From: Verrucomicrobiia bacterium
Lineage (GTDB): Bacteria > Verrucomicrobiota > Verrucomicrobiia > Limisphaerales > UBA1319
Direction: 5' to 3'
Length of the DNA stretch: 64,000 nucleotides
NCBI GenBank assembly: GCA_963664225.1
Contig: OY760937.1
Span: 2,144,001 to 2,208,000 of the forward strand
The translations under genes and the position numbers were made by a program. This document shows, one piece after another, positions 4,318 to 64,000 of the stretch (the first letter of the stretch is position 1; each line of letters begins with the position of its first letter). The notes beneath the pieces were generated by a model, which searched no databases, was not told where the DNA came from, and was given only the letters and a program-made list of their open reading frames with translations.

Positions 4318-4767
4318 CTACGACGGATACCTGCCCGAAATGTAATCCTCGAGATGGCCGATGGTGGCGTTCTGCGCGGAGATGATCCAGTTGACCAGGT
4401 TGCCGATGGAGACGACCCCAACCACCCGGTCCCCTTCCAGAACGGGCAGATGACGCACGCGGTTGTCATTCATCAGGCGCATGCAATCCTGAACCGTGTG
4501 GCGGGGAGTCACGGTAACCAGTTTCGTGGTCATGATTTCGCGAACAAACGTCTCTTTGGATGATTTCCCCTTGATGGCGATTTTGCGGGTGTAATCGCGC
4601 TCTGAAAGCATGCCGACCAATCGAACCTGCTCCATGACCAGCACGGCGCCCAGGTTTTTCGCCGCCATGAGGCCGATGGCTTCAAACACGGTTTGATCCG
4701 GGGTGACGCTCCATACGTCGCGCCCTTTGAGGTTCAGGACGGCATCAATTGTTCCGTTTGCATTCAT
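4318..4767 (-). CDS. CBS-domain protein
   Basis: Tandem CBS pair (GMLSERDY, VREIMT, VRHLPV, GVVSIG). Confidence 0.92.
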   Translation of the reverse strand: MNANGTIDAVLNLKGRDVWSVTPDQTVFEAIGLMAAKNLGAVLVMEQVRLVGMLSERDYTRKIAIKGKSSKETFVREIMTTKLVTVTPRHTVQDCMRLMNDNRVRHLPVLEGDRVVGVVSIGNLVNWIISAQNATIGHLEDYISGRYPS

Positions 4768-5185
4768 AAGTCGTTGCCACTTTCAGCCTCTCCCTGCCTG
4801 CCCCGCGACACGGCGCAGCCCTTTGGGTGAACCGACCCGTGACGCGCGCTGTTTTACGAACCGTAACCTAAGCGATCCCGGGGGAATTTGCGAGTTTTTC
4901 GGCGGGACAATCCGGGTGCATGACAAAATTCACGCGTGCGGAAAACAGCCATGGCCGAGGCTGATTTGAAAGAGTGAATTGCGTTTTGAAGCGCCCTTTT
5001 GTCATGCAGGCGTCACGCAACGGCCGTTTACAGCCGCGTTGACCCTATCAGGGTCTTGAGAATCAAGGCGATCTGCCAATCCCTGACGTGACAGACGGAG
5101 ATATAGCCGCTGACATGCGAATCGGGGTGCTGAGTTGCGCTGCCATCGTTTCATAATAGAATCACCCCGTAGCGGAGACCTTTTA

Positions 5186-7160
5186 GTAGAGTAGGCGAAA
5201 TGGACGGATTGAATGGCCGTGGCCAATGACCGTCGCATTTCGCCCCTCATCGAACCGGACAGGCGGTTTTCCCGCATCCGGCTCTCCGGGGATCATACGT
5301 TGCATCGCTTCGACGTCATCGTTTCCATGCCGCATATTCCGGCATTTGGTATAAACCATAACGCTCATAGAGATCCTCCTTGGGGTATGTGGACCATTGC
5401 GCCCGACTACATCCGTGTTTGCGCCACAACCATCGTTGTAACTTGCTGCTGACGTATTCGTTCATCTGGCCCATCACCTTGGTGCTGTTCCCGTAGTGAA
5501 AGTAACCCTTCCAACCTTTGAGTTTCTTGTTGAGCTCGGGAATCACCTCTCCGATATCACGCCATAGCGTGCTTCGGTTGAGTTTCTCCCGAATCCCGTC
5601 TCGAAACTTCTTCTGGCTCTTGGGATGGGGTTCCACATGCGGATATTTCCATTTCCCCTTCCCCTGTCGCATTGTTAGCGCGAATCCCAAGAATTTGATG
5701 CCATCCTGGCGGAGGTCCACCAAGCGGGTCTTCTTCTCGTTGAGCACTAACTCGCGTTGCTTCAGCCATCGTTCCAGTCGTTCCATCAGTTCCCGTCCCT
5801 GCCCCGGCTGTCCGAGTATCACGAAATCATCCGCGTATCTCACCATCACGGGTTTGAGTTCGCAGCGTTCGTTGACTTCCCAATCCAACTGGTTGAGGTA
5901 TGCATTGGCTAAAATCGGCGATACAACCCCGCCTTGCGGAGTCCCCCGTCGATTCTGACCTTGCCCCCCCTTTGTCCCGCCTTTCCCTGTGTCGCTTTGC
6001 GGTTCATTCACGGGCGCGCGCAGCCATCCTGCGATCAGCTTGAGAATTGTTCCATCGCTGACCCGCTTGGCCACTATGCGCAACAAACGCCTGTGGGGAA
6101 TGCTGTCAAAATACCCGCTTAAGTCCGCGTCTATAACTTCGACGCGTCCTGTCAGCGTAGCCTTCTTGATCGCCTCCATTGCTTGGTGGGCATTGCGTTT
6201 GGGATGATAGGCGTAACTGTTCGGATGACTATCGGCTTCCAGAATCGGCAGCAATACAATCACCACCGCTGTCTGCACCACCCGGTCTTTCACTGTCGGG
6301 ATGCCCAGGGGTCGCAGCTTCCCGTCTCCTTTTGGTATATACACACGCTTCACCGGGCTTGGCCGATACTTCTTCGTGCGTAACTCCTCCAGCAGTTGGT
6401 TCCGCCATTGGTCCCAGGCTTCGTCGCTGGCAAGATAGACGTCGCATGTCTGCCCGTCGATCCCAGCCGCGCCATTGTTGTGCGCCACGGAGGCCATTGC
6501 CGTTTCCAGCACGTCCTTCCGCAGCAGTTCTCCGTAGAGGCTGTAAAACCGATACTTCGGCTCAGCCTTGGCTTTGCAATATAGCGCTCGCTGCAGCTTT
6601 TGAACTTTTATCGGGGTTGTTATCCGTTGAAAAAGTGTTTCCACTCCCTCAAGGCCATCTCCCTGTCCCTCGCTGTTTTGATTCGCTTCGATCCAAGTGC
6701 CTTCCCTTGGCTCCGCCGGGGTTTTGGTCGCCCCAGCTTCTTCGCTACTATGGAAGACTCCGACTTCTCTGGCTGCCCGTGCGGCCTCGGAGGGTGTTCC
6801 TCCTTGCACCGGCGGTTGAGGCTTTATCGCCCCGCCTCCAGAGATCTCCCAGCTTACCTTGGTTTCCCTTCCTGTCGTGTCGCCCTCGCTGACTCCGCCG
6901 GAATCAACAGCGCCCATTTGACGATTTGATGACGCCGCGTTTCTGCCTTCGCCGTTCGGGTAGCGGCTCGGCTTACCGGTTATTTCGGTTTCGGAGCTCA
7001 TTTGATGAGGTTTACTTTCGTTACGACCCGACAGTTCTTTCAGCGTCCCGCTTGTGGTTCGGCCTCACGGCCTCGTCCCGGACGCTGCATTTCGGTCGTG
7101 AACCGTCTAATTCGACCGGCGGGACTTTCACCCACGAGGCTACCAATTTCACTGGCGCAC
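5186..7160 (-). mobile_element. Group II intron, copy 1 (1,975 nt; class E/F-like, no endonuclease domain)
   Basis: 5' GUGCG at 7160; domain V GAGCCGGAUGCGGGAAAACCGCCUGUCCGGUUC; 3' end ...CCUACUCUAC at 5186; internal RT ORF; boundaries agree with the second copy. Confidence 0.95.
5316..7001 (-). CDS. ltrA: Group II intron reverse transcriptase/maturase (true start probably near 6640)
   Basis: RT0 GAAGIDG, RPLGIPTVKDRVVQ, GTPQGGVVSPILAN, YADD, thumb/X domain (LKGWKGYF); no HNH C-terminus. Confidence 0.95.
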   Translation of the reverse strand: MSSETEITGKPSRYPNGEGRNAASSNRQMGAVDSGGVSEGDTTGRETKVSWEISGGGAIKPQPPVQGGTPSEAARAAREVGVFHSSEEAGATKTPAEPREGTWIEANQNSEGQGDGLEGVETLFQRITTPIKVQKLQRALYCKAKAEPKYRFYSLYGELLRKDVLETAMASVAHNNGAAGIDGQTCDVYLASDEAWDQWRNQLLEELRTKKYRPSPVKRVYIPKGDGKLRPLGIPTVKDRVVQTAVVIVLLPILEADSHPNSYAYHPKRNAHQAMEAIKKATLTGRVEVIDADLSGYFDSIPHRRLLRIVAKRVSDGTILKLIAGWLRAPVNEPQSDTGKGGTKGGQGQNRRGTPQGGVVSPILANAYLNQLDWEVNERCELKPVMVRYADDFVILGQPGQGRELMERLERWLKQRELVLNEKKTRLVDLRQDGIKFLGFALTMRQGKGKWKYPHVEPHPKSQKKFRDGIREKLNRSTLWRDIGEVIPELNKKLKGWKGYFHYGNSTKVMGQMNEYVSSKLQRWLWRKHGCSRAQWSTYPKEDLYERYGLYQMPEYAAWKR

Positions 7161-7324
7161 ACCCGAAATCCGAAATAGGAACGGCCCATCTGACGCAATC
7201 ATTTGGCCATCCATGGTTTGAAACCGGCTGTGGAGTATTGGTTTAATACACCTTCGCCGATTGCAAATCATGGCTGACTCAAAGCATTGCATCGTCTTGA
7301 CCATTCTTATTTCGGATTTCGGGT
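7161..7324. mobile_element. 164-bp palindromic MITE, copy 1
   Basis: TIR ACCCGAAATCCGAAATA...TATTTCGGATTTCGGGT; flanked by TTA (5183-5185, beyond the intron) and TTA (7325-7327); reverse complement of copies 2 and 3. Confidence 0.85.
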
Positions 7325-7387
7325 TTAAATGCCTTTTTTAATTTGCAGATCCGGGGCTGCCGCCGCCAACGCTTCAGTCTGTCAGAA

Positions 7388-10117
7388 TCATTTTTCCACA
7401 CGCTGGATGCGCAGGTTGTCGAGGTAGAATGCGGTGTCCGCCTCCGCCGTGCTGCTGAAGCCCAGCCACTGCAATTCCCGGAAATCCTGGCCGCTCATCG
7501 GGAGAGCCTCAAAGGTTTTGGGTTGTTTACCTTCGGGCCTCAGTGTCAAACGAAACACGCGGGCCGCACTCTTTCCCAGTGGTGCCTGTATCTCCACATG
7601 AATCCATTGACGGCTCGGCACGGTTGCCAGAAGCCTGCCGCCAGCACTGACGTTCCCATTTCCTTCGAAGCGCAAGCTCGGGCCGATGTTCTGCGGGTAT
7701 GAACTGGTGTCGCGCCACTCGGTGATGAACTGCGCGTTGGTTTCAAACCAGACATCGAAGCTCTGGCACACCATGCCGGAGACAAGGTGCGGTTCGTAGT
7801 AGAAATGCGGTTGCCAGTTGGGCCGGAGCGTCGCGGAATCCGTCACTTTCAAACTCCGCTGGCCGCTGGCCGCGCGCTCTCCTGTCACCCGGATCGACGC
7901 CCCCTGCTCCTCGCCGCTAACCCGGGCCTGTTCGGGCGCTGCGCCGACCGGCGTTGTCTCAAATCCATCATCCACCTCCAAAGGTTTTGGGGGCGCAGGT
8001 GGTGGAGGCAGCGCGATCCTGGGGCAGCGCGCGTGGCTGGCCTCGTTCACCCAGGCGGAATCGCCATAGAGTCCGACCTGACTGATATCAAACTCCCCGA
8101 ATCCGAGTTCCAGGGCTGGCGAAGTGCTTTGGAGCCGGAAATCGTGTCCGTCAGCATTCACAAACTGAGGATCCGCAATCCGCGAGTGTGTATCCAGCCC
8201 GATGGCCTGCCATTCTCCAATGGTCCGGCGGAAGAACCGGAGCGCCTCGGGCCCCGCCGTATGCCAGTAAACGTTCTCGTCCCAGTCCCCTGGCGATTCT
8301 TTGGCGGCGAGACGTTCGCCAAGCGATTTTTCGCCGTAGTCCACCATGAGTTGGCCCTGCGTGAGGTAAACGATGTTGCGACGGAAGGCATTGGGACGCT
8401 TTTCGAAATAAGGCCACAGCGCCTGGTTGGCGGAGCAGGCGAAGATGTTATTCCGGATGACATGCTCATGGCCCCCGTTGTTGAACATCAGACCGCCACT
8501 CAGCGTGTTATAGACGAGGTTGCTTTCAACGAGGTAATTCCCGCACTGCGCATCCAGGTAAATTCCCCAGCCCAGAGCCGGCGCGGAGTATGGCCAGAGG
8601 TCGTGAAAGACATTGTTGCGAATGACGCTGCCGGGTGAAACCCCGAGGCAGTAAATCAAGCCGGCGTCACTCATGACCCCATGACCCAAATCGTGAACGT
8701 GGTTGAACTCGATGAGGTTGTTGGTCGTGCGATTCGGCTCCAGGCCCCAGTTCCAGCCGACGCTGATCCCGGTGTAGTAGAAGTCGTGAATGTCGTTGTG
8801 CGAAATTCGGTTTCCGCTGCTTTGGGCAACCCAGATTCCGACGCAGCCGGGATAAATCCGTCCACCGTCGAAGAGGTGGTTATTGTCCACAAGAGTGCGA
8901 CTGGTTTCCGCCACGTCCGAACTGGCCATGCGGTCCTCCCCCACCCGGATGCCGCCCGCACCGAGATCGAAGAGGCGATTGCGCTGGATGCGGCAGTCCT
9001 TGCAGCCCCGCCGGAACCAGATCCCATAGGTGCCGATGTGGGCCACTTCACAACCTTCGATGGCGCAGTCCATGGCCCCATCCGCCGTGATGGTGGCCGG
9101 GACTTCCACGGCCGCCTGGGTGCTGCTGTTACCCTTGGCGTCGAGCACCCAGTCCGCGTGATGAAAGGCCAACCCCCGGAGGGTCACGTGCCTCACGAAC
9201 TGGCCCTTCCCGGGATCGCCAGCCAGGGACACAAAGTTGGTCAACACAGGAGCCATAATCGGCGTGTCGCCCAGCCGTTCCCCAGGCATCGGCCAATAGG
9301 TCAGCACGCCCGTTTCGCGGTTGAGATACCATTCCCCCGGGGTGTCGAGCAATTCTCGCGCGTTCTCCACAAAATAACGCTGATGCTCCTCCCAGTATCC
9401 CAAGCCCCACCACTCCTTCATCGGGGCGGCCAATTCGACGATATTGGAAACCGTGTCCACCGACTTGAGCGGGTGGATGGAGTTCTCCCATGAATGCATG
9501 AGCACCAGGTTCACATCGTTGAGCCGTGGCCAGGGCTGAAGATCCCCGGGCGCAAATACGAACCGTTCGCGCGCCACGGGTTTGGCGTTCGGAATCGGCG
9601 GGCCGGGAATCAGCCGCGCGATGCGGTAATAACCGGTGTTCGGGGAACGCGCCCGCTGGCGCCGCTGCCCATCGACAAATAATTGCCGGAAATACCACTG
9701 CCCCGATTTTACTTCAGGGAGGGTGGTCTCCCAAAGGTTCCCGGTCCGATGAAACCCCGTGATGGATCGTCCGCCGGAGAAAACCGGCTTCTCATTCTGG
9801 AACGCGGCATATACCACCGGCCCCTCGGTTGTCCCGGAGTCTTGGGGCTGGAGCACTAACGGTGCTTTCAGGAAATAAGTTCCGCCGCGCACAAAGACCT
9901 GCACCGGCCGACTCCCAATCTCCGACCGCTGCTCCCGGATCCGGTCGCGGGCTCCCGCCAACGAAGACAACGGCCCGTCTGTACGCGCCGCGTTGGGAGC
10001 GGCCAGACGGCCGGACCAACCGTCCTCGCCATTGGTGGAGATGTAGAGCGTGAAAGGTGCCGGGGCGGCGGCTGTCGCGGTGCAGACAGCCAGAAAGAGG
10101 GCCAGAATCAGGTTCAT
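7388..10117 (-). CDS. Secreted right-handed beta-helix glycan-active protein (GH141-like) with C-terminal beta-sandwich
   Basis: Signal peptide from ATG 10117, YISTNGEDGWSG N-terminal motif, parallel beta-helix repeats, WGIYLD, ADPQFVN. Confidence 0.8.
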   Translation of the reverse strand: MNLILALFLAVCTATAAAPAPFTLYISTNGEDGWSGRLAAPNAARTDGPLSSLAGARDRIREQRSEIGSRPVQVFVRGGTYFLKAPLVLQPQDSGTTEGPVVYAAFQNEKPVFSGGRSITGFHRTGNLWETTLPEVKSGQWYFRQLFVDGQRRQRARSPNTGYYRIARLIPGPPIPNAKPVARERFVFAPGDLQPWPRLNDVNLVLMHSWENSIHPLKSVDTVSNIVELAAPMKEWWGLGYWEEHQRYFVENARELLDTPGEWYLNRETGVLTYWPMPGERLGDTPIMAPVLTNFVSLAGDPGKGQFVRHVTLRGLAFHHADWVLDAKGNSSTQAAVEVPATITADGAMDCAIEGCEVAHIGTYGIWFRRGCKDCRIQRNRLFDLGAGGIRVGEDRMASSDVAETSRTLVDNNHLFDGGRIYPGCVGIWVAQSSGNRISHNDIHDFYYTGISVGWNWGLEPNRTTNNLIEFNHVHDLGHGVMSDAGLIYCLGVSPGSVIRNNVFHDLWPYSAPALGWGIYLDAQCGNYLVESNLVYNTLSGGLMFNNGGHEHVIRNNIFACSANQALWPYFEKRPNAFRRNIVYLTQGQLMVDYGEKSLGERLAAKESPGDWDENVYWHTAGPEALRFFRRTIGEWQAIGLDTHSRIADPQFVNADGHDFRLQSTSPALELGFGEFDISQVGLYGDSAWVNEASHARCPRIALPPPPAPPKPLEVDDGFETTPVGAAPEQARVSGEEQGASIRVTGERAASGQRSLKVTDSATLRPNWQPHFYYEPHLVSGMVCQSFDVWFETNAQFITEWRDTSSYPQNIGPSLRFEGNGNVSAGGRLLATVPSRQWIHVEIQAPLGKSAARVFRLTLRPEGKQPKTFEALPMSGQDFRELQWLGFSSTAEADTAFYLDNLRIQRVEK

Positions 10118-42047: not shown

Positions 42048-42104
42048 GCGGAGGAAGCGCCGGGCGCAGGACAAAATTCTTCAGCATGCCGAAAAAGGCT
42101 TTTA

Positions 42105-44079
42105 GTAGAGTAGGCGAAATGGACGGATTGAATGGCCGTGGCCAATGACCGTCGCATTTCGCCCCTCATCGAACCGGACAGGCGGTTTTCCCGCATCCGG
42201 CTCTCCGGGGATCATACGTTGCATCGCTTCGACGTCATCGTTTCCATGCCGCATATTCCGGCATTTGGTATAAACCATAACGCTCATAGAGATCCTCCTT
42301 GGGGTATGTGGACCATTGCGCCCGACTACATCCGTGTTTGCGCCACAACCATCGTTGTAACTTGCTGCTGACGTATTCGTTCATCTGGCCCATCACCTTG
42401 GTGCTGTTCCCGTAGTGAAAGTAACCCTTCCAACCTTTGAGTTTCTTGTTGAGCTCGGGAATCACCTCTCCGATATCACGCCATAGCGTGCTTCGGTTGA
42501 GTTTCTCCCGAATCCCGTCTCGAAACTTCTTCTGGCTCTTGGGATGGGGTTCCACATGCGGATATTTCCATTTCCCCTTCCCCTGTCGCATTGTTAGCGC
42601 GAATCCCAAGAATTTGATGCCATCCTGGCGGAGGTCCACCAAGCGGGTCTTCTTCTCGTTGAGCACTAACTCGCGTTGCTTCAGCCATCGTTCCAGTCGT
42701 TCCATCAGTTCCCGTCCCTGCCCCGGCTGTCCGAGTATCACGAAATCATCCGCGTATCTCACCATCACGGGTTTGAGTTCGCAGCGTTCGTTGACTTCCC
42801 AATCCAACTGGTTGAGGTATGCATTGGCTAAAATCGGCGATACAACCCCGCCTTGCGGAGTCCCCCGTCGATTCTGACCTTGCCCCCCCTTTGTCCCGCC
42901 TTTCCCTGTGTCGCTTTGCGGTTCATTCACGGGCGCGCGCAGCCATCCTGCGATCAGCTTGAGAATTGTTCCATCGCTGACCCGCTTGGCCACTATGCGC
43001 AACAAACGCCTGTGGGGAATGCTGTCAAAATACCCGCTTAAGTCCGCGTCTATAACTTCGACGCGTCCTGTCAGCGTAGCCTTCTTGATCGCCTCCATTG
43101 CTTGGTGGGCATTGCGTTTGGGATGATAGGCGTAACTGTTCGGATGACTATCGGCTTCCAGAATCGGCAGCAATACAATCACCACCGCTGTCTGCACCAC
43201 CCGGTCTTTCACTGTCGGGATGCCCAGGGGTCGCAGCTTCCCGTCTCCTTTTGGTATATACACACGCTTCACCGGGCTTGGCCGATACTTCTTCGTGCGT
43301 AACTCCTCCAGCAGTTGGTTCCGCCATTGGTCCCAGGCTTCGTCGCTGGCAAGATAGACGTCGCATGTCTGCCCGTCGATCCCAGCCGCGCCATTGTTGT
43401 GCGCCACGGAGGCCATTGCCGTTTCCAGCACGTCCTTCCGCAGCAGTTCTCCGTAGAGGCTGTAAAACCGATACTTCGGCTCAGCCTTGGCTTTGCAATA
43501 TAGCGCTCGCTGCAGCTTTTGAACTTTTATCGGGGTTGTTATCCGTTGAAAAAGTGTTTCCACTCCCTCAAGGCCATCTCCCTGTCCCTCGCTGTTTTGA
43601 TTCGCTTCGATCCAAGTGCCTTCCCTTGGCTCCGCCGGGGTTTTGGTCGCCCCAGCTTCTTCGCTACTATGGAAGACTCCGACTTCTCTGGCTGCCCGTG
43701 CGGCCTCGGAGGGTGTTCCTCCTTGCACCGGCGGTTGAGGCTTTATCGCCCCGCCTCCAGAGATCTCCCAGCTTACCTTGGTTTCCCTTCCTGTCGTGTC
43801 GCCCTCGCTGACTCCGCCGGAATCAACAGCGCCCATTTGACGATTTGATGACGCCGCGTTTCTGCCTTCGCCGTTCGGGTAGCGGCTCGGCTTACCGGTT
43901 ATTTCGGTTTCGGAGCTCATTTGATGAGGTTTACTTTCGTTACGACCCGACAGTTCTTTCAGCGTCCCGCTTGTGGTTCGGCCTCACGGCCTCGTCCCGG
44001 ACGCTGCATTTCGGTCGTGAACCGTCTAATTCGACCGGCGGGACTTTCACCCACGAGGCTACCAATTTCACTGGCGCAC
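42105..44079 (-). mobile_element. Group II intron, copy 2 (apparently identical to copy 1)
   Basis: Same GUGCG start, DV/DVI end and internal ORF translations at a constant offset of 36,919 nt. Confidence 0.95.
42235..43920 (-). CDS. ltrA: Group II intron reverse transcriptase/maturase
   Basis: Protein identical to 5316..7001. Confidence 0.95.
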   Translation of the reverse strand: MSSETEITGKPSRYPNGEGRNAASSNRQMGAVDSGGVSEGDTTGRETKVSWEISGGGAIKPQPPVQGGTPSEAARAAREVGVFHSSEEAGATKTPAEPREGTWIEANQNSEGQGDGLEGVETLFQRITTPIKVQKLQRALYCKAKAEPKYRFYSLYGELLRKDVLETAMASVAHNNGAAGIDGQTCDVYLASDEAWDQWRNQLLEELRTKKYRPSPVKRVYIPKGDGKLRPLGIPTVKDRVVQTAVVIVLLPILEADSHPNSYAYHPKRNAHQAMEAIKKATLTGRVEVIDADLSGYFDSIPHRRLLRIVAKRVSDGTILKLIAGWLRAPVNEPQSDTGKGGTKGGQGQNRRGTPQGGVVSPILANAYLNQLDWEVNERCELKPVMVRYADDFVILGQPGQGRELMERLERWLKQRELVLNEKKTRLVDLRQDGIKFLGFALTMRQGKGKWKYPHVEPHPKSQKKFRDGIREKLNRSTLWRDIGEVIPELNKKLKGWKGYFHYGNSTKVMGQMNEYVSSKLQRWLWRKHGCSRAQWSTYPKEDLYERYGLYQMPEYAAWKR

Positions 44080-44243
44080 ACCCGAAATCCGAAATAAGAA
44101 TGGTCAAGACGATGCAATGCTTTGAGACAGCCATGATTTGCAATCGGCGAAGGTGTATTAAACCAATACTCCACAGCCGGTTTCAAACCATGGATGGCCA
44201 AATGATTGCGTCAGATGGGCCGTTCCTATTTCGGATTTCGGGT
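44080..44243. mobile_element. 164-bp palindromic MITE, copy 2
   Basis: Same TIRs; inverted relative to copy 1; TTA at 42102-42104 and at 44244-44246. Confidence 0.85.
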
Positions 44244-44286
44244 TTAACCAACATGGAAGTATATAGGCCGAATGAACACTGTCGGC

Positions 44287-55470: not shown

Positions 55471-55901
55471 TCCGGTTCCATTTCAAACGTCCGGACCAGG
55501 TGGATCGACAGGTTGAGTAAATGGCGGAGGGTGCCCCACCCGGCGTCCGGCGTTCGTCATTGCAGCTCGGTTGATTGAGAAACCGCCGCATGCGTCGCCC
55601 CACGGATCGCGACGTCCAAGGCTTCTGTATGGAGTCCCGTCTTTAGACGGCGCAGCGCTCAAAAGCGAGGGGTCATGAATATTTTTAACCCCCTCGATAA
55701 TCCGAAAACCTTCGCGAATTCCCCAAGCTCACCGTTGCTCTGTCTCCCATTCAAACAATCCCCCGCCCATCCCACCTGCTTGCGCGTCCAAACCGCAACT
55801 CGTAGCGCAGGTTTCCAACCGTATCGCAGATTTCCAATCTGCTAACCGTCTCACATTCACAGAGCGCACCACAAAAACCTCCGATCCGCGGAAGCCCTTT
55901 A

Positions 55902-56065
55902 AACCGAAATCCGAAATAAGAATGGTCAAGACGATGCAATGCTTTGAGTCAGCCATGATTTGCAATCGGCGAAGGTGTATTAAACCAATACTCCACAGCC
56001 GGTTTCAAACCATGGATGGCCAAATGATTGCGTCAGATGGGCCGTTCCTATTTCGGATTTCGGGT
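55902..56065. mobile_element. 164-bp palindromic MITE, copy 3 (intron-free)
   Basis: Near-identical to copies 1 and 2; TTA at 55899-55901 and 56066-56068; left TIR reads AACCG instead of ACCCG. Confidence 0.85.
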
Positions 56066-56607
56066 TTAATACCCCATTGAAGCCTCACCCAACCGAACGA
56101 ACCACCCACGCCATTTCGTAAAACCCACATTCTTCCTGTCTCCCATTCAAACGATTCCCTCCAGGCATCCCGGCAGGGATCGCAGACCCTTTTCCAACGA
56201 ACGCCTGCCTCCCGATCCTACAAATCGCAATCAGAAGCTCCATTCGACCGCCAACTCATCGGTTCGCGGCCACCGTGACGTTCGCGGTAGGAGGGCGTGC
56301 AGTCCTCTGTGCGCCGCCCGCCAATCCCACGCGCCCAATAACTCCATGCGCGGGAAAATTACTTCCTCTCCATCGCCAGATGGGTCGGGGTGAGGTGGCT
56401 TTTTCCCCTCTAGGCCATGCGAAATTACCTCCACGCTTGCTTTCACCACCACCATTCCCTTTTCCCATCGTGCGCATCCTGAACATCCATGTAAAATTCT
56501 GCGCCCCTCTGCGGATACCTTTTCCCCCGTGCCCATCCGCCCGGCGCCCGCCCGATTTTACATGATTTTCCTTTGAAATTAACAACCCAACACGCGATGC
56601 TCCCTCC

Positions 56608-62854: not shown

Positions 62855-63165
62855 CATAGACATGCCGATCCGCTGGGGCTTTGAATTCGACGGGCCTTGG
62901 GCGCTATAAACATCCCGAGCCCCGGCGCTTCTGATGTTGGACTTGGAGATGAACACGCTTCGGATGGGGGACTTGGAGGTGGAAGCGTGTGCGACATGGA
63001 AATGGGCGTGCGCCAGAAGCTCCGTAGGAGCGCCATGTTTATAGAAACGAGACCGCCAAAAGTGACAAGCTCCGTAGGAGCGGCATGATAACGACGACCA
63101 ACACATCGTGGCGGATGATTAATGCGTGTGTTGAGAACATGCCGCCCCTCCGGCGCTGGGGATGG
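62855..63165. repeat. REP-like palindrome cluster upstream of the Y1 transposase
   Basis: AAGCTCCGTAGGAGCG at 63017 and 63067; related CATGCCG..C..C.GG.GCT units in opposite orientation. Confidence 0.8.
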
Positions 63166-63732: not shown

Positions 63733-63759
63733 AGTGACATGAGGATGAACACGCACCAA

Positions 63760-64000
63760 AAGCTCCGTAGGAGCGCCATGTTTATAGAAACCGGACCGGT
63801 AAGAGTCCCAAGCTCCGTAGGAGCGGCATGATAACGATGGCCCGCCCCGCGCGACCGATGATCGACATCCACATTGAGAATGTGCCGCCCCGCTGGGGCT
63901 TGGAAATCGGTGGGGGGCTTGCGTTGCTATAAACATGCCGCGCCTCCGGCGCTTCGGAATGGGACTTTGAGATGATCGCACGCGGGACTTGGAGATGGAA
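63760..64000. repeat. REP-like palindrome cluster downstream of the Y1 transposase
   Basis: AAGCTCCGTAGGAGCG at 63760 and 63810, plus inverted related units around 63880-63955. Confidence 0.8.

Follow-up and report, generated by a model that had tools for sequence, protein, structure and literature searches.

The stretch examined here (the window) comprises 64,000 nt from a Verrucomicrobiia bacterium (Limisphaerales; UBA1319) and spans positions 2,144,001-2,208,000 of a single-contig genome of 5.78 Mb and 56% GC (GCA_963664225.1, contig OY760937.1). It harbours two copies of a group II intron, each lying against a miniature inverted-repeat transposable element (MITE), and a third MITE that is free of introns (Table 1). 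An earlier reading of the window, made from its letters alone and referred to below as the sequence-only reading, had placed the two introns at 5186-7160 and 42105-44079 and proposed that they home to the end of a hairpin-forming MITE. Both were found there, on the minus strand.

Table 1. The intron and MITE loci of the window and the parts involved in target recognition (EBS, exon-binding site; IBS, intron-binding site; IS, insertion sequence)
Feature	Position in window	Strand	Remarks
Group II intron, copy 1	5186..7160	minus	1975 nt; 5' GTGCG, 3' ...CTAC; RF02005 at 6883-7128, RF00029 at 5186-5286
Group II intron, copy 2	42105..44079	minus	identical to copy 1
Intron-encoded protein (reverse transcriptase and maturase X, no endonuclease domain)	5316..6645	minus	start uncertain; GTG at about 6645 fits RT0
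EBS1, ACCCGAA	6955..6961	minus	intron nt 200-206, hairpin loop (a loop in the Rfam alignment); pairs with IBS1 TTCGGGT
EBS2, CCGAAAU	6982..6988	minus	intron nt 173-179; pairs with IBS2: TTCGG at all MITE ends and the IS right end, ATTTCGG in MITEs
5'-exon DNA target	7161..7176	minus	IBS2 at -16/-14 to -10, 2-nt linker at -9 and -8, IBS1 at -7 to -1
Predicted ligated-exon junction, copy 1 locus			...TTTCGGGT joined to TAAAAGG
MITE copy 1	7162..7323	plus	162 bp, CCCGAAAT...ATTTCGGG, long imperfect palindrome
Right duplication of MITE copy 1, TTTAA	7324..7328	plus	the left copy, interrupted by the intron, consists of 5182-5185 and 7161
MITE copy 2	44081..44242	minus	inverted relative to copy 1; TTTAA at 44243-44247 and at 42101-42104 plus 44080
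MITE copy 3, intron-free	55903..56064	minus	TTTAA at 55898-55902 and 56065-56069

The intron and its encoded protein

The two introns of the window are identical over 1975 nt, with an identity that begins at 5180 and takes in 6 nt of the 3' exon. Rfam recognises domains I-IV as RF02005 (54.9 bits, gathering cut-off 49) and domains V-VI as RF00029 (49.3 bits, gathering cut-off 40), and the 3' end on the minus strand reads ...CCTACTCTAC. The intron-encoded protein (IEP) belongs to the Pfam families RVT_1 (1.8e-34) and GIIM (1e-13) and to no other, scores 356 bits against TIGR04416 (cut-off 300), contains the motif YADD and ends about 25 aa past GIIM with the C-terminus ...DLYERYGLYQMPEYAAWKR. 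With domains I-VI, a GTGCG 5' end, a CTAC 3' end and a reverse transcriptase (RT) joined to a maturase, this is a complete group II intron of the type that contains an open reading frame (ORF), and its RT/maturase has no endonuclease (En) domain. The IEP frame stays open for 561 codons (5316-7001), extending across ribozyme domains I-III as far as an ATG at 7001; this long upstream extension is probably a product of chance, as RT homology begins only around residue 120.

The protein does not by itself betray the class of the intron. The C-terminal motif LX3AX3PXLF[V/A]HW, given for the class D introns RmInt1 and RmInt2 (PMC4615759), was absent from the IEP C-terminus when checked by eye. The closest solved RTs come from IIC introns (7uim, 8.1e-53; GsI-IIC, 8.7e-48), with the non-IIC RT 6me0 at 6.7e-46, and these neighbours do not discriminate between classes; a tblastn search of plasmids returned only 39-42% identity, to many introns, and gives no class assignment.

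The MITE and an IS1380-family element

The MITE is 162 bp long, has the ends CCCGAA...TTCGGG and is present in the genome in 18 complete copies and a number of split or partial ones (identity 92-100%), roughly 20 in all and mostly intergenic. It is short and non-coding, and combines terminal inverted repeats (TIRs) and a target duplication with a high copy number, as expected of a MITE. As single-stranded DNA it folds into one long hairpin of -40.2 kcal/mol (z = -7.1), a value that none of 200 shuffled sequences equalled. Members of the IS1380 family have TIRs that start with CC and generate a 4-5-bp duplication, and the genome contains an insertion sequence (IS) of this kind: five identical copies of 1532 bp, encoding a 474-aa transposase that matches NF033539 (IS1380) with 227 bits (cut-off 180) and DDE_Tnp_1_4 at 2.4e-27, with tips (CCCGAACTCCGA) and a 5-bp duplication that agree with IS1380-family ends. 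MITE and IS share 12 of the first 13 tip bases as well as the sequence of the duplication.

Two of the IS copies sit in the central TTTAA of a MITE, and each has an intron at one end (828,002-831,676 and 2,984,654-2,988,329), so that transposase, MITE and intron are physically nested in one another. The second of these nests lies only about 2 kb from dnaA. A further MITE, at genome positions 264,553-266,581, is split by a 1858-bp insertion with ends that resemble inverted repeats (GCACTTTACCCC...GGGTAAAGTGC) and is probably interrupted by another IS family; this MITE has no matching duplication.

Nineteen identical copies at a single motif

BLAST against the whole genome recovers 19 full-length intron copies, all of them 100% identical over 1975 nt, and four further short matches at 76% identity at other loci. 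In every full-length copy the 5' exon ends in TCGGA[T/G]TTCGGGT; the 3' exon starts with TAAA in 10 copies and with TTAA in 9. MITE ends account for 13 copies and ends of the 1532-bp IS for four, and with both kinds of element either end is used. One of the other two lies past the stop codon of a unique gene, with a match to the motif of only 13 nt, and the last follows 16 motif-matching nt beside an unrelated repeat family. Tabulation of the 5' exon of all copies had been set beforehand as the test that could overturn the sequence-only reading; 19/19 copies proved to lie at the TIR-tip motif and none elsewhere. A 13-nt 5'-exon motif common to all 19 genomic copies makes the pattern far beyond chance. 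The selectivity is strict: 19 of the 51 sites in the genome that carry the exact motif (12 specified bases) are occupied, compared with 0/35 sites with one mismatch and 0/449 sites with two. No MITE carries an intron at both ends.

A repeat family that ends in ...CGTTTTCGTCATTAATAATTCCGAT is found at genome positions 3,973,869-3,974,258 and in at least five more places (5,343,422; 1,258,449; 4,905,264; 616,998; 129,478). One of its copies is truncated exactly at the start of the 16-nt intron target, and the family looks like a shared upstream region.

Nineteen identical repeats of 2 kb are hard to assemble, and it might be argued that the assembler misplaced a repeat beside the MITEs. However, the genome is one 5.78-Mb contig in which every copy of the intron has unique flanks. 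In the contigs of run X1 the intron unitig has a depth of 462 against 25-31 in unique flanks, which corresponds to about 15-19 copies, and unitigs span the passage from flank to intron (4700-5209) and from flank to MITE (7299-7900). No X1 contig bypasses the intron, a result that says nothing on rare empty sites. X1 is possibly the source sample and hence does not count as independent support for the assembly; even so, an artefact of this kind has next to no chance of being the explanation. A contig of the metagenome run X6, extending over window positions 5254-7164 at a depth of 36, contains the same intron with 7 base differences, and a close variant thus exists in an environmental sample.

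The insertion point and the order of events

Deletion of the introns in silico left 18 complete MITEs (162 bp) and 5 complete IS copies (1532 bp) for comparison. Perfect 5-bp direct repeats flank 21 of these 23 elements (16/18 MITEs and 5/5 IS copies), and they read TTTAA in 13 cases, TTAAA in 7 and TTTAT in one. In the TTTAT case, and in the TTGAG found at a split MITE, the base beside CCC is not A; the A and T with which the sequence-only reading had begun and ended the element therefore belong to the duplication and not to the element. The intron sits between nt 1 and nt 2 of this duplication and hence one base outside the element, which leaves the IS or MITE intact. The junction ...TATTTCGGATTTCGGGT, intron, TAA reads as the sequence-only reading had claimed, and its view that the intron abuts a MITE that stays whole was correct, though it had given the MITE 164 bp and a TTA duplication where the real values are 162 bp and the 5-bp TTTAA. 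By the same token the intron, which it had put between the last TIR base and the duplication, does lie outside the element but inside the duplication, after its first nt.

The duplication surrounds nothing but the element in each of the 17 occupied cases, and the intron interrupts that duplication, from which it follows that the intron arrived after the element and did not travel with it. One-ended transposition is known for some IS1380-family members, and an intron that always adjoins an element and is identical in all its copies could in principle have been carried passively by a transposing MITE or IS. Such composite movement predicts a duplication beyond the 3' end of the intron, whereas not one of the 17 elements has a duplication that encloses MITE plus intron; moreover, either MITE end and either IS end can be used, with the strand set by chromosome position. 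We consider passive carriage extremely unlikely. The two occupied MITEs of the window, reverse-complementary to each other at 99%, do lie in opposite orientations with the intron at different ends, and the independent homing that had been deduced from them is borne out by the use of both MITE orientations and by the split duplications (17/17).

Strand choice and replication

Between 2.99 and 5.61 Mb and between 0.05 and 0.95 Mb of the genome the introns lie on the plus strand, and those at 1.66-2.19 Mb are on the minus strand. The six minus-strand copies are contiguous on the circle, an arrangement with a chance probability of 19/27132, or about 7e-4, by our own arithmetic. Markers of replication direction that do not depend on the introns fit this pattern. 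The gene dnaA is located at 2,990,068-2,991,396 with two DnaA boxes just upstream, and the densest DnaA-box windows of the chromosome are at 2.8925 Mb and 0.783 Mb. The cumulative gene-strand bias has its maximum at 1.27 Mb and a flat minimum over 2.8-3.3 Mb; GC skew is flat over 1.4-3.7 Mb, with strongly positive values from 3.7 Mb through 0 to 1.3 Mb.

With the origin set at 2.89 Mb, the introns occupy 19/26 exact sites on one strand, the permissive one, as opposed to 0/25 on the other (Fisher p = 1.7e-8). An origin at this position and a terminus near 1.3 Mb would mean that all introns point with the replication fork and that the target strand is the lagging-strand template. On the permissive strand occupancy is similar at intact MITE ends (13/16) and IS ends (4/5). 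A lagging-strand bias has been published for the En-less introns RmInt1 and RmInt2 (PMC4615759).

Evidence for target recognition by base pairing

Position -1 of the target (7161) is a base of the duplication and not of the MITE, and +1 is always T. IBS2 extends to -16 in MITEs, and the linker includes the variable position -8, which is T in MITEs and G in the IS. Relatives of the intron, which were retrieved with a conserved intron 23-mer from one genome per species (37 loci), make it possible to ask whether the proposed pairings covary; the sequence on either side of the junction is long enough at 11 of the 37 loci, and the 8 of these with a conserved anchor form the covariation set. In 7/8 the loop homologous to EBS1 is a 7/7 complement of the last seven exon bases of the same locus, and six different sequences are represented; the relative in G034 also has an EBS1 loop complementary to its own exon. 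A stretch that directly follows a conserved CGAAA behaves as EBS2 and reads CCGAA against TTCGG in our intron and in some relatives, CGGCA against TGCCG in L054 and CTACA against TGTAG in L032. Its match is 5/5 in three of the eight relatives, 4/5 in three and 3/5 in two. Another candidate for EBS2, CUCCGA at intron positions 165-170, was rejected, being part of a conserved stem in the Rfam alignment and showing no covariation in the G034 relative.

Group IIC introns insert after terminator or attC stem-loops, and are characterised by a stem-loop target in the 5' exon, a short EBS1/IBS1 and no EBS2. A structural, IIC-like recognition of the base of the palindromic MITE hairpin is conceivable, given the strength of that hairpin (z = -7.1), the position of the intron at its base and the IIC origin of the closest solved RTs, although the non-IIC 6me0 scores 6.7e-46. 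Against this speaks a 7-nt EBS1 in combination with an EBS2 that covaries, which is unlike group IIC as just defined. Furthermore, occupied sites exist where the MITE hairpin does not, with four copies at the ends of a 1.5-kb IS and two at MITE-less sites (one of them with a match of just 13 nt, where a unique gene ends); occupancy is alike at MITE and IS ends, as noted above. Conversely, two MITEs with an intact hairpin and one tip mismatch on the permissive strand are empty (2,199,903 and 3,186,727). Recognition of the hairpin is thus very unlikely, and the hairpin is not required for insertion, because IS ends and MITE-less sites are used and hairpin-intact but mismatched MITEs are not. The proposal that the intron targets the end of a hairpin MITE is right as to homing at the tip and wrong as to the MITE or hairpin as such. 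The empty MITE at 2,199,903 is copy 3 of the window, where a C>A change at 55903 in the minus-strand (permissive) tip turns IBS1 into TTCGGTT, a mismatch at -2.

A model for homing at transposon tips

Intron anatomy, the census of sites, the splitting of the duplications, covariation of the EBS sequences and asymmetry between the strands are direct observations, and together they are best accounted for by an En-less intron, active now or until very recently, that would retrohome by RNA-DNA pairing to a 15-nt site at the junction of an IS1380-like tip and its duplication on the lagging-strand template. We hold this mechanism, which is well supported by the sequence evidence, to be very probable. 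The site would combine the terminal 13 nt of the inverted repeat (TCGGA-K-TTCGGG) with the first two bases of the duplication, a T on either side of the insertion point. In the intron RNA, EBS2 (CCGAA) would pair with positions -14 to -10 and, after a 2-nt linker, EBS1 (ACCCGAA) with -7 to -1. With tips that are inverted repeats and a duplication, TTTAA or TTAAA, that reads T-first outward from both ends, each IS or MITE should offer two equivalent sites, one per strand. In the model the lack of an endonuclease confines the intron to the site on the lagging-strand template, at which nascent lagging-strand DNA would prime cDNA synthesis; each element would consequently be hit at one end only, the end depending on the replichore. 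The MITEs, being mostly intergenic, would supply most of the harmless landing pads. A three-tier dependence of transposase, MITE and intron had already been envisaged in the sequence-only reading. The transposase tier does exist, in the form of five IS copies with near-identical tips and the same duplication, but the target is the IS1380-family tip plus one duplication base and not the MITE as such.

A number of points weigh against this mechanism. Splicing and present-day mobility are deduced from the sequence, as is priming by Okazaki fragments. EBS3 was not located in the intron, and five perfect sites on the permissive strand are empty. That the MITE is mobilised by the IS transposase is suggested by the 12/13 tip bases and the shared duplication, and the interior of the MITE has no detectable similarity to the IS. 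Other reservations concern replication, the origin being deduced from the markers above. GC skew, flat from 1.4 to 3.7 Mb, could not place it on its own, and the cluster of DnaA boxes at 0.783 Mb is as dense as that at 2.8925 Mb. An origin at 2.9917 Mb, immediately upstream of dnaA, would put the copy at 2,986,270 on the wrong strand, with 18/19 copies conforming and an occupancy of 18/26 vs 1/25. The replichores implied by the preferred origin are in addition very unequal (about 1.5 vs 4.3 Mb), an odd asymmetry that may stem from a recent large rearrangement.

Related introns in other Verrucomicrobiota

In the pattern scan, sequences related to the intron come almost solely from metagenome-assembled genomes (MAGs) of Verrucomicrobiota, among them MAGs labelled Chthoniobacter and Akkermansiaceae. 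A near-identical intron was not among the 40 relatives searched, where the best match was 71% over 508 nt, and none of these 40 genomes matched the MITE (0/40); most of them are fragmented, and neither result is proof of absence. The 5' junction is visible at 31 of the 37 related loci. At 13 of the 31, from 3 MAGs, the exon ends in an 11-14/14 match to the same tip (14/14 at L055). Of the 29 loci whose upstream sequence is 60 nt or longer, 12 carry their own tip a second time in inverted orientation, 54-326 nt upstream and with no more than 3/14 mismatches, for which we estimate a chance of about 0.01 per locus. One intron (L041) is preceded by the C-terminal end of an IS1380 transposase (56% identity), and two others (L063 and L064) follow weak, sub-threshold DDE_Tnp_1 C-termini, these being two of eight upstream ORFs tested. 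A second tip family (CCTAAAAACGG...) shows the same geometry of one base outside the element, with C, T or A as the base that separates the intron from the tip. Three different tip families are each accompanied by a matching EBS1 and EBS2.

It is tempting to see in these loci a Verrucomicrobiota lineage of En-less introns that has specialised on IS1380-like tip/duplication junctions, retargeting EBS1 and EBS2 as the repeats diverge and always inserting one base outside, so that the transposon would stay mobile and make new sites, with MITEs as the main reservoir: a stable chain of parasites on three levels. At least six relatives at unrelated sites (three in G042, and those of G034, L062 and L048) speak against so wide a reading, and many of the related loci stem from the same few MAGs. 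The lineage-wide view is plausible but not established, and we would put its prospects at somewhat below even.

Other loci of this set are notable in their own right. L003 (G034:C102:13087-13781) is an ORF-less derivative of a related intron of about 695 nt, and three related full-length copies in G042 (L059-L061) appear, from their coordinates, to lack a GUGYG start and to follow immediately on a common exon end ...TCCGGC. Away from the intron loci, the window contains a pair of 127-nt direct repeats (62993-63119 and 63736-63862) with 80% identity and a spacing of 743 nt.

Comparison with known introns

That bacterial group II introns home into other mobile DNA is well known. The target of RmInt1 in Sinorhizobium meliloti reportedly lies inside the element ISRm2011-2. 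RmInt1 resembles the intron described here in being En-less, in having its homing site in a mobile element, in EBS/IBS recognition and in priming by the nascent lagging strand; its target is described as ISRm2011-2 itself, with one site per element and no mention of repeat tips. Group IIC introns also come close, as they lack an En domain, enter intergenic or mobile DNA at the base of a stem-loop and have RTs that are the nearest solved relatives, but differ from our intron with its 7-nt EBS1, its EBS2, its sites without a hairpin and its larger RNA (about 695 nt in the ORF-less relative).

The closest parallel is RmInt2 of S. meliloti GR4, which homes into the inverted repeats of ISRm17 at either end (Toro laboratory, RNA Biol 2014, PMC4615759). 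Each ISRm17 offers two RmInt2 sites on opposite replication strands, and a lagging-strand bias is observed (PMC4615759). RmInt2 shares with our intron the lack of an En domain, the identity of all copies, the location at IS inverted repeats, the preference for the lagging-strand template, the 2-nt linker (-9, -8) between IBS2 and IBS1 and the tolerance of four EBS2 pairs. It differs in that its insertion is described as lying within the inverted repeat, whereas ours lies one base outside, in the duplication, and leaves the element whole; the class D C-terminal motif is, furthermore, absent from our IEP. Compared with RmInt2 and ISRm17, the targets here are mostly MITEs (13/19), the IS is of the IS1380 family and the host belongs to the Verrucomicrobiota. 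The supposition of the sequence-only reading that a pairing of this kind had not been described thus falls in principle, as RmInt2/ISRm17 is a precedent (PMC4615759). Literature searches, whose coverage does not extend to subscription journals, brought up no account of group II introns that home to IS1380 or to the ends of MITEs. The novelty consists in MITEs serving as the reservoir, in an insertion point outside the repeat and in the reappearance of the pattern among related Verrucomicrobiota introns; the strategy itself has already been published for RmInt2.

Implications

The advance is incremental, as the concept is already in print for RmInt2, but the genome amounts to a natural experiment on target choice by an endonuclease-less group II intron, with dozens of identical, strand-symmetric site pairs on one chromosome. 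The use of the two strands is all-or-none (19/26 vs 0/25), and the strand that is not used provides a built-in control for the model of priming at the replication fork. A short, defined target of 15 nt together with a covarying EBS1 and EBS2 makes the intron an easy candidate for a retrohoming assay. The system also illustrates how a retroelement takes advantage of a DNA transposon that it does not disable, most of its landing pads being provided by non-autonomous MITEs.

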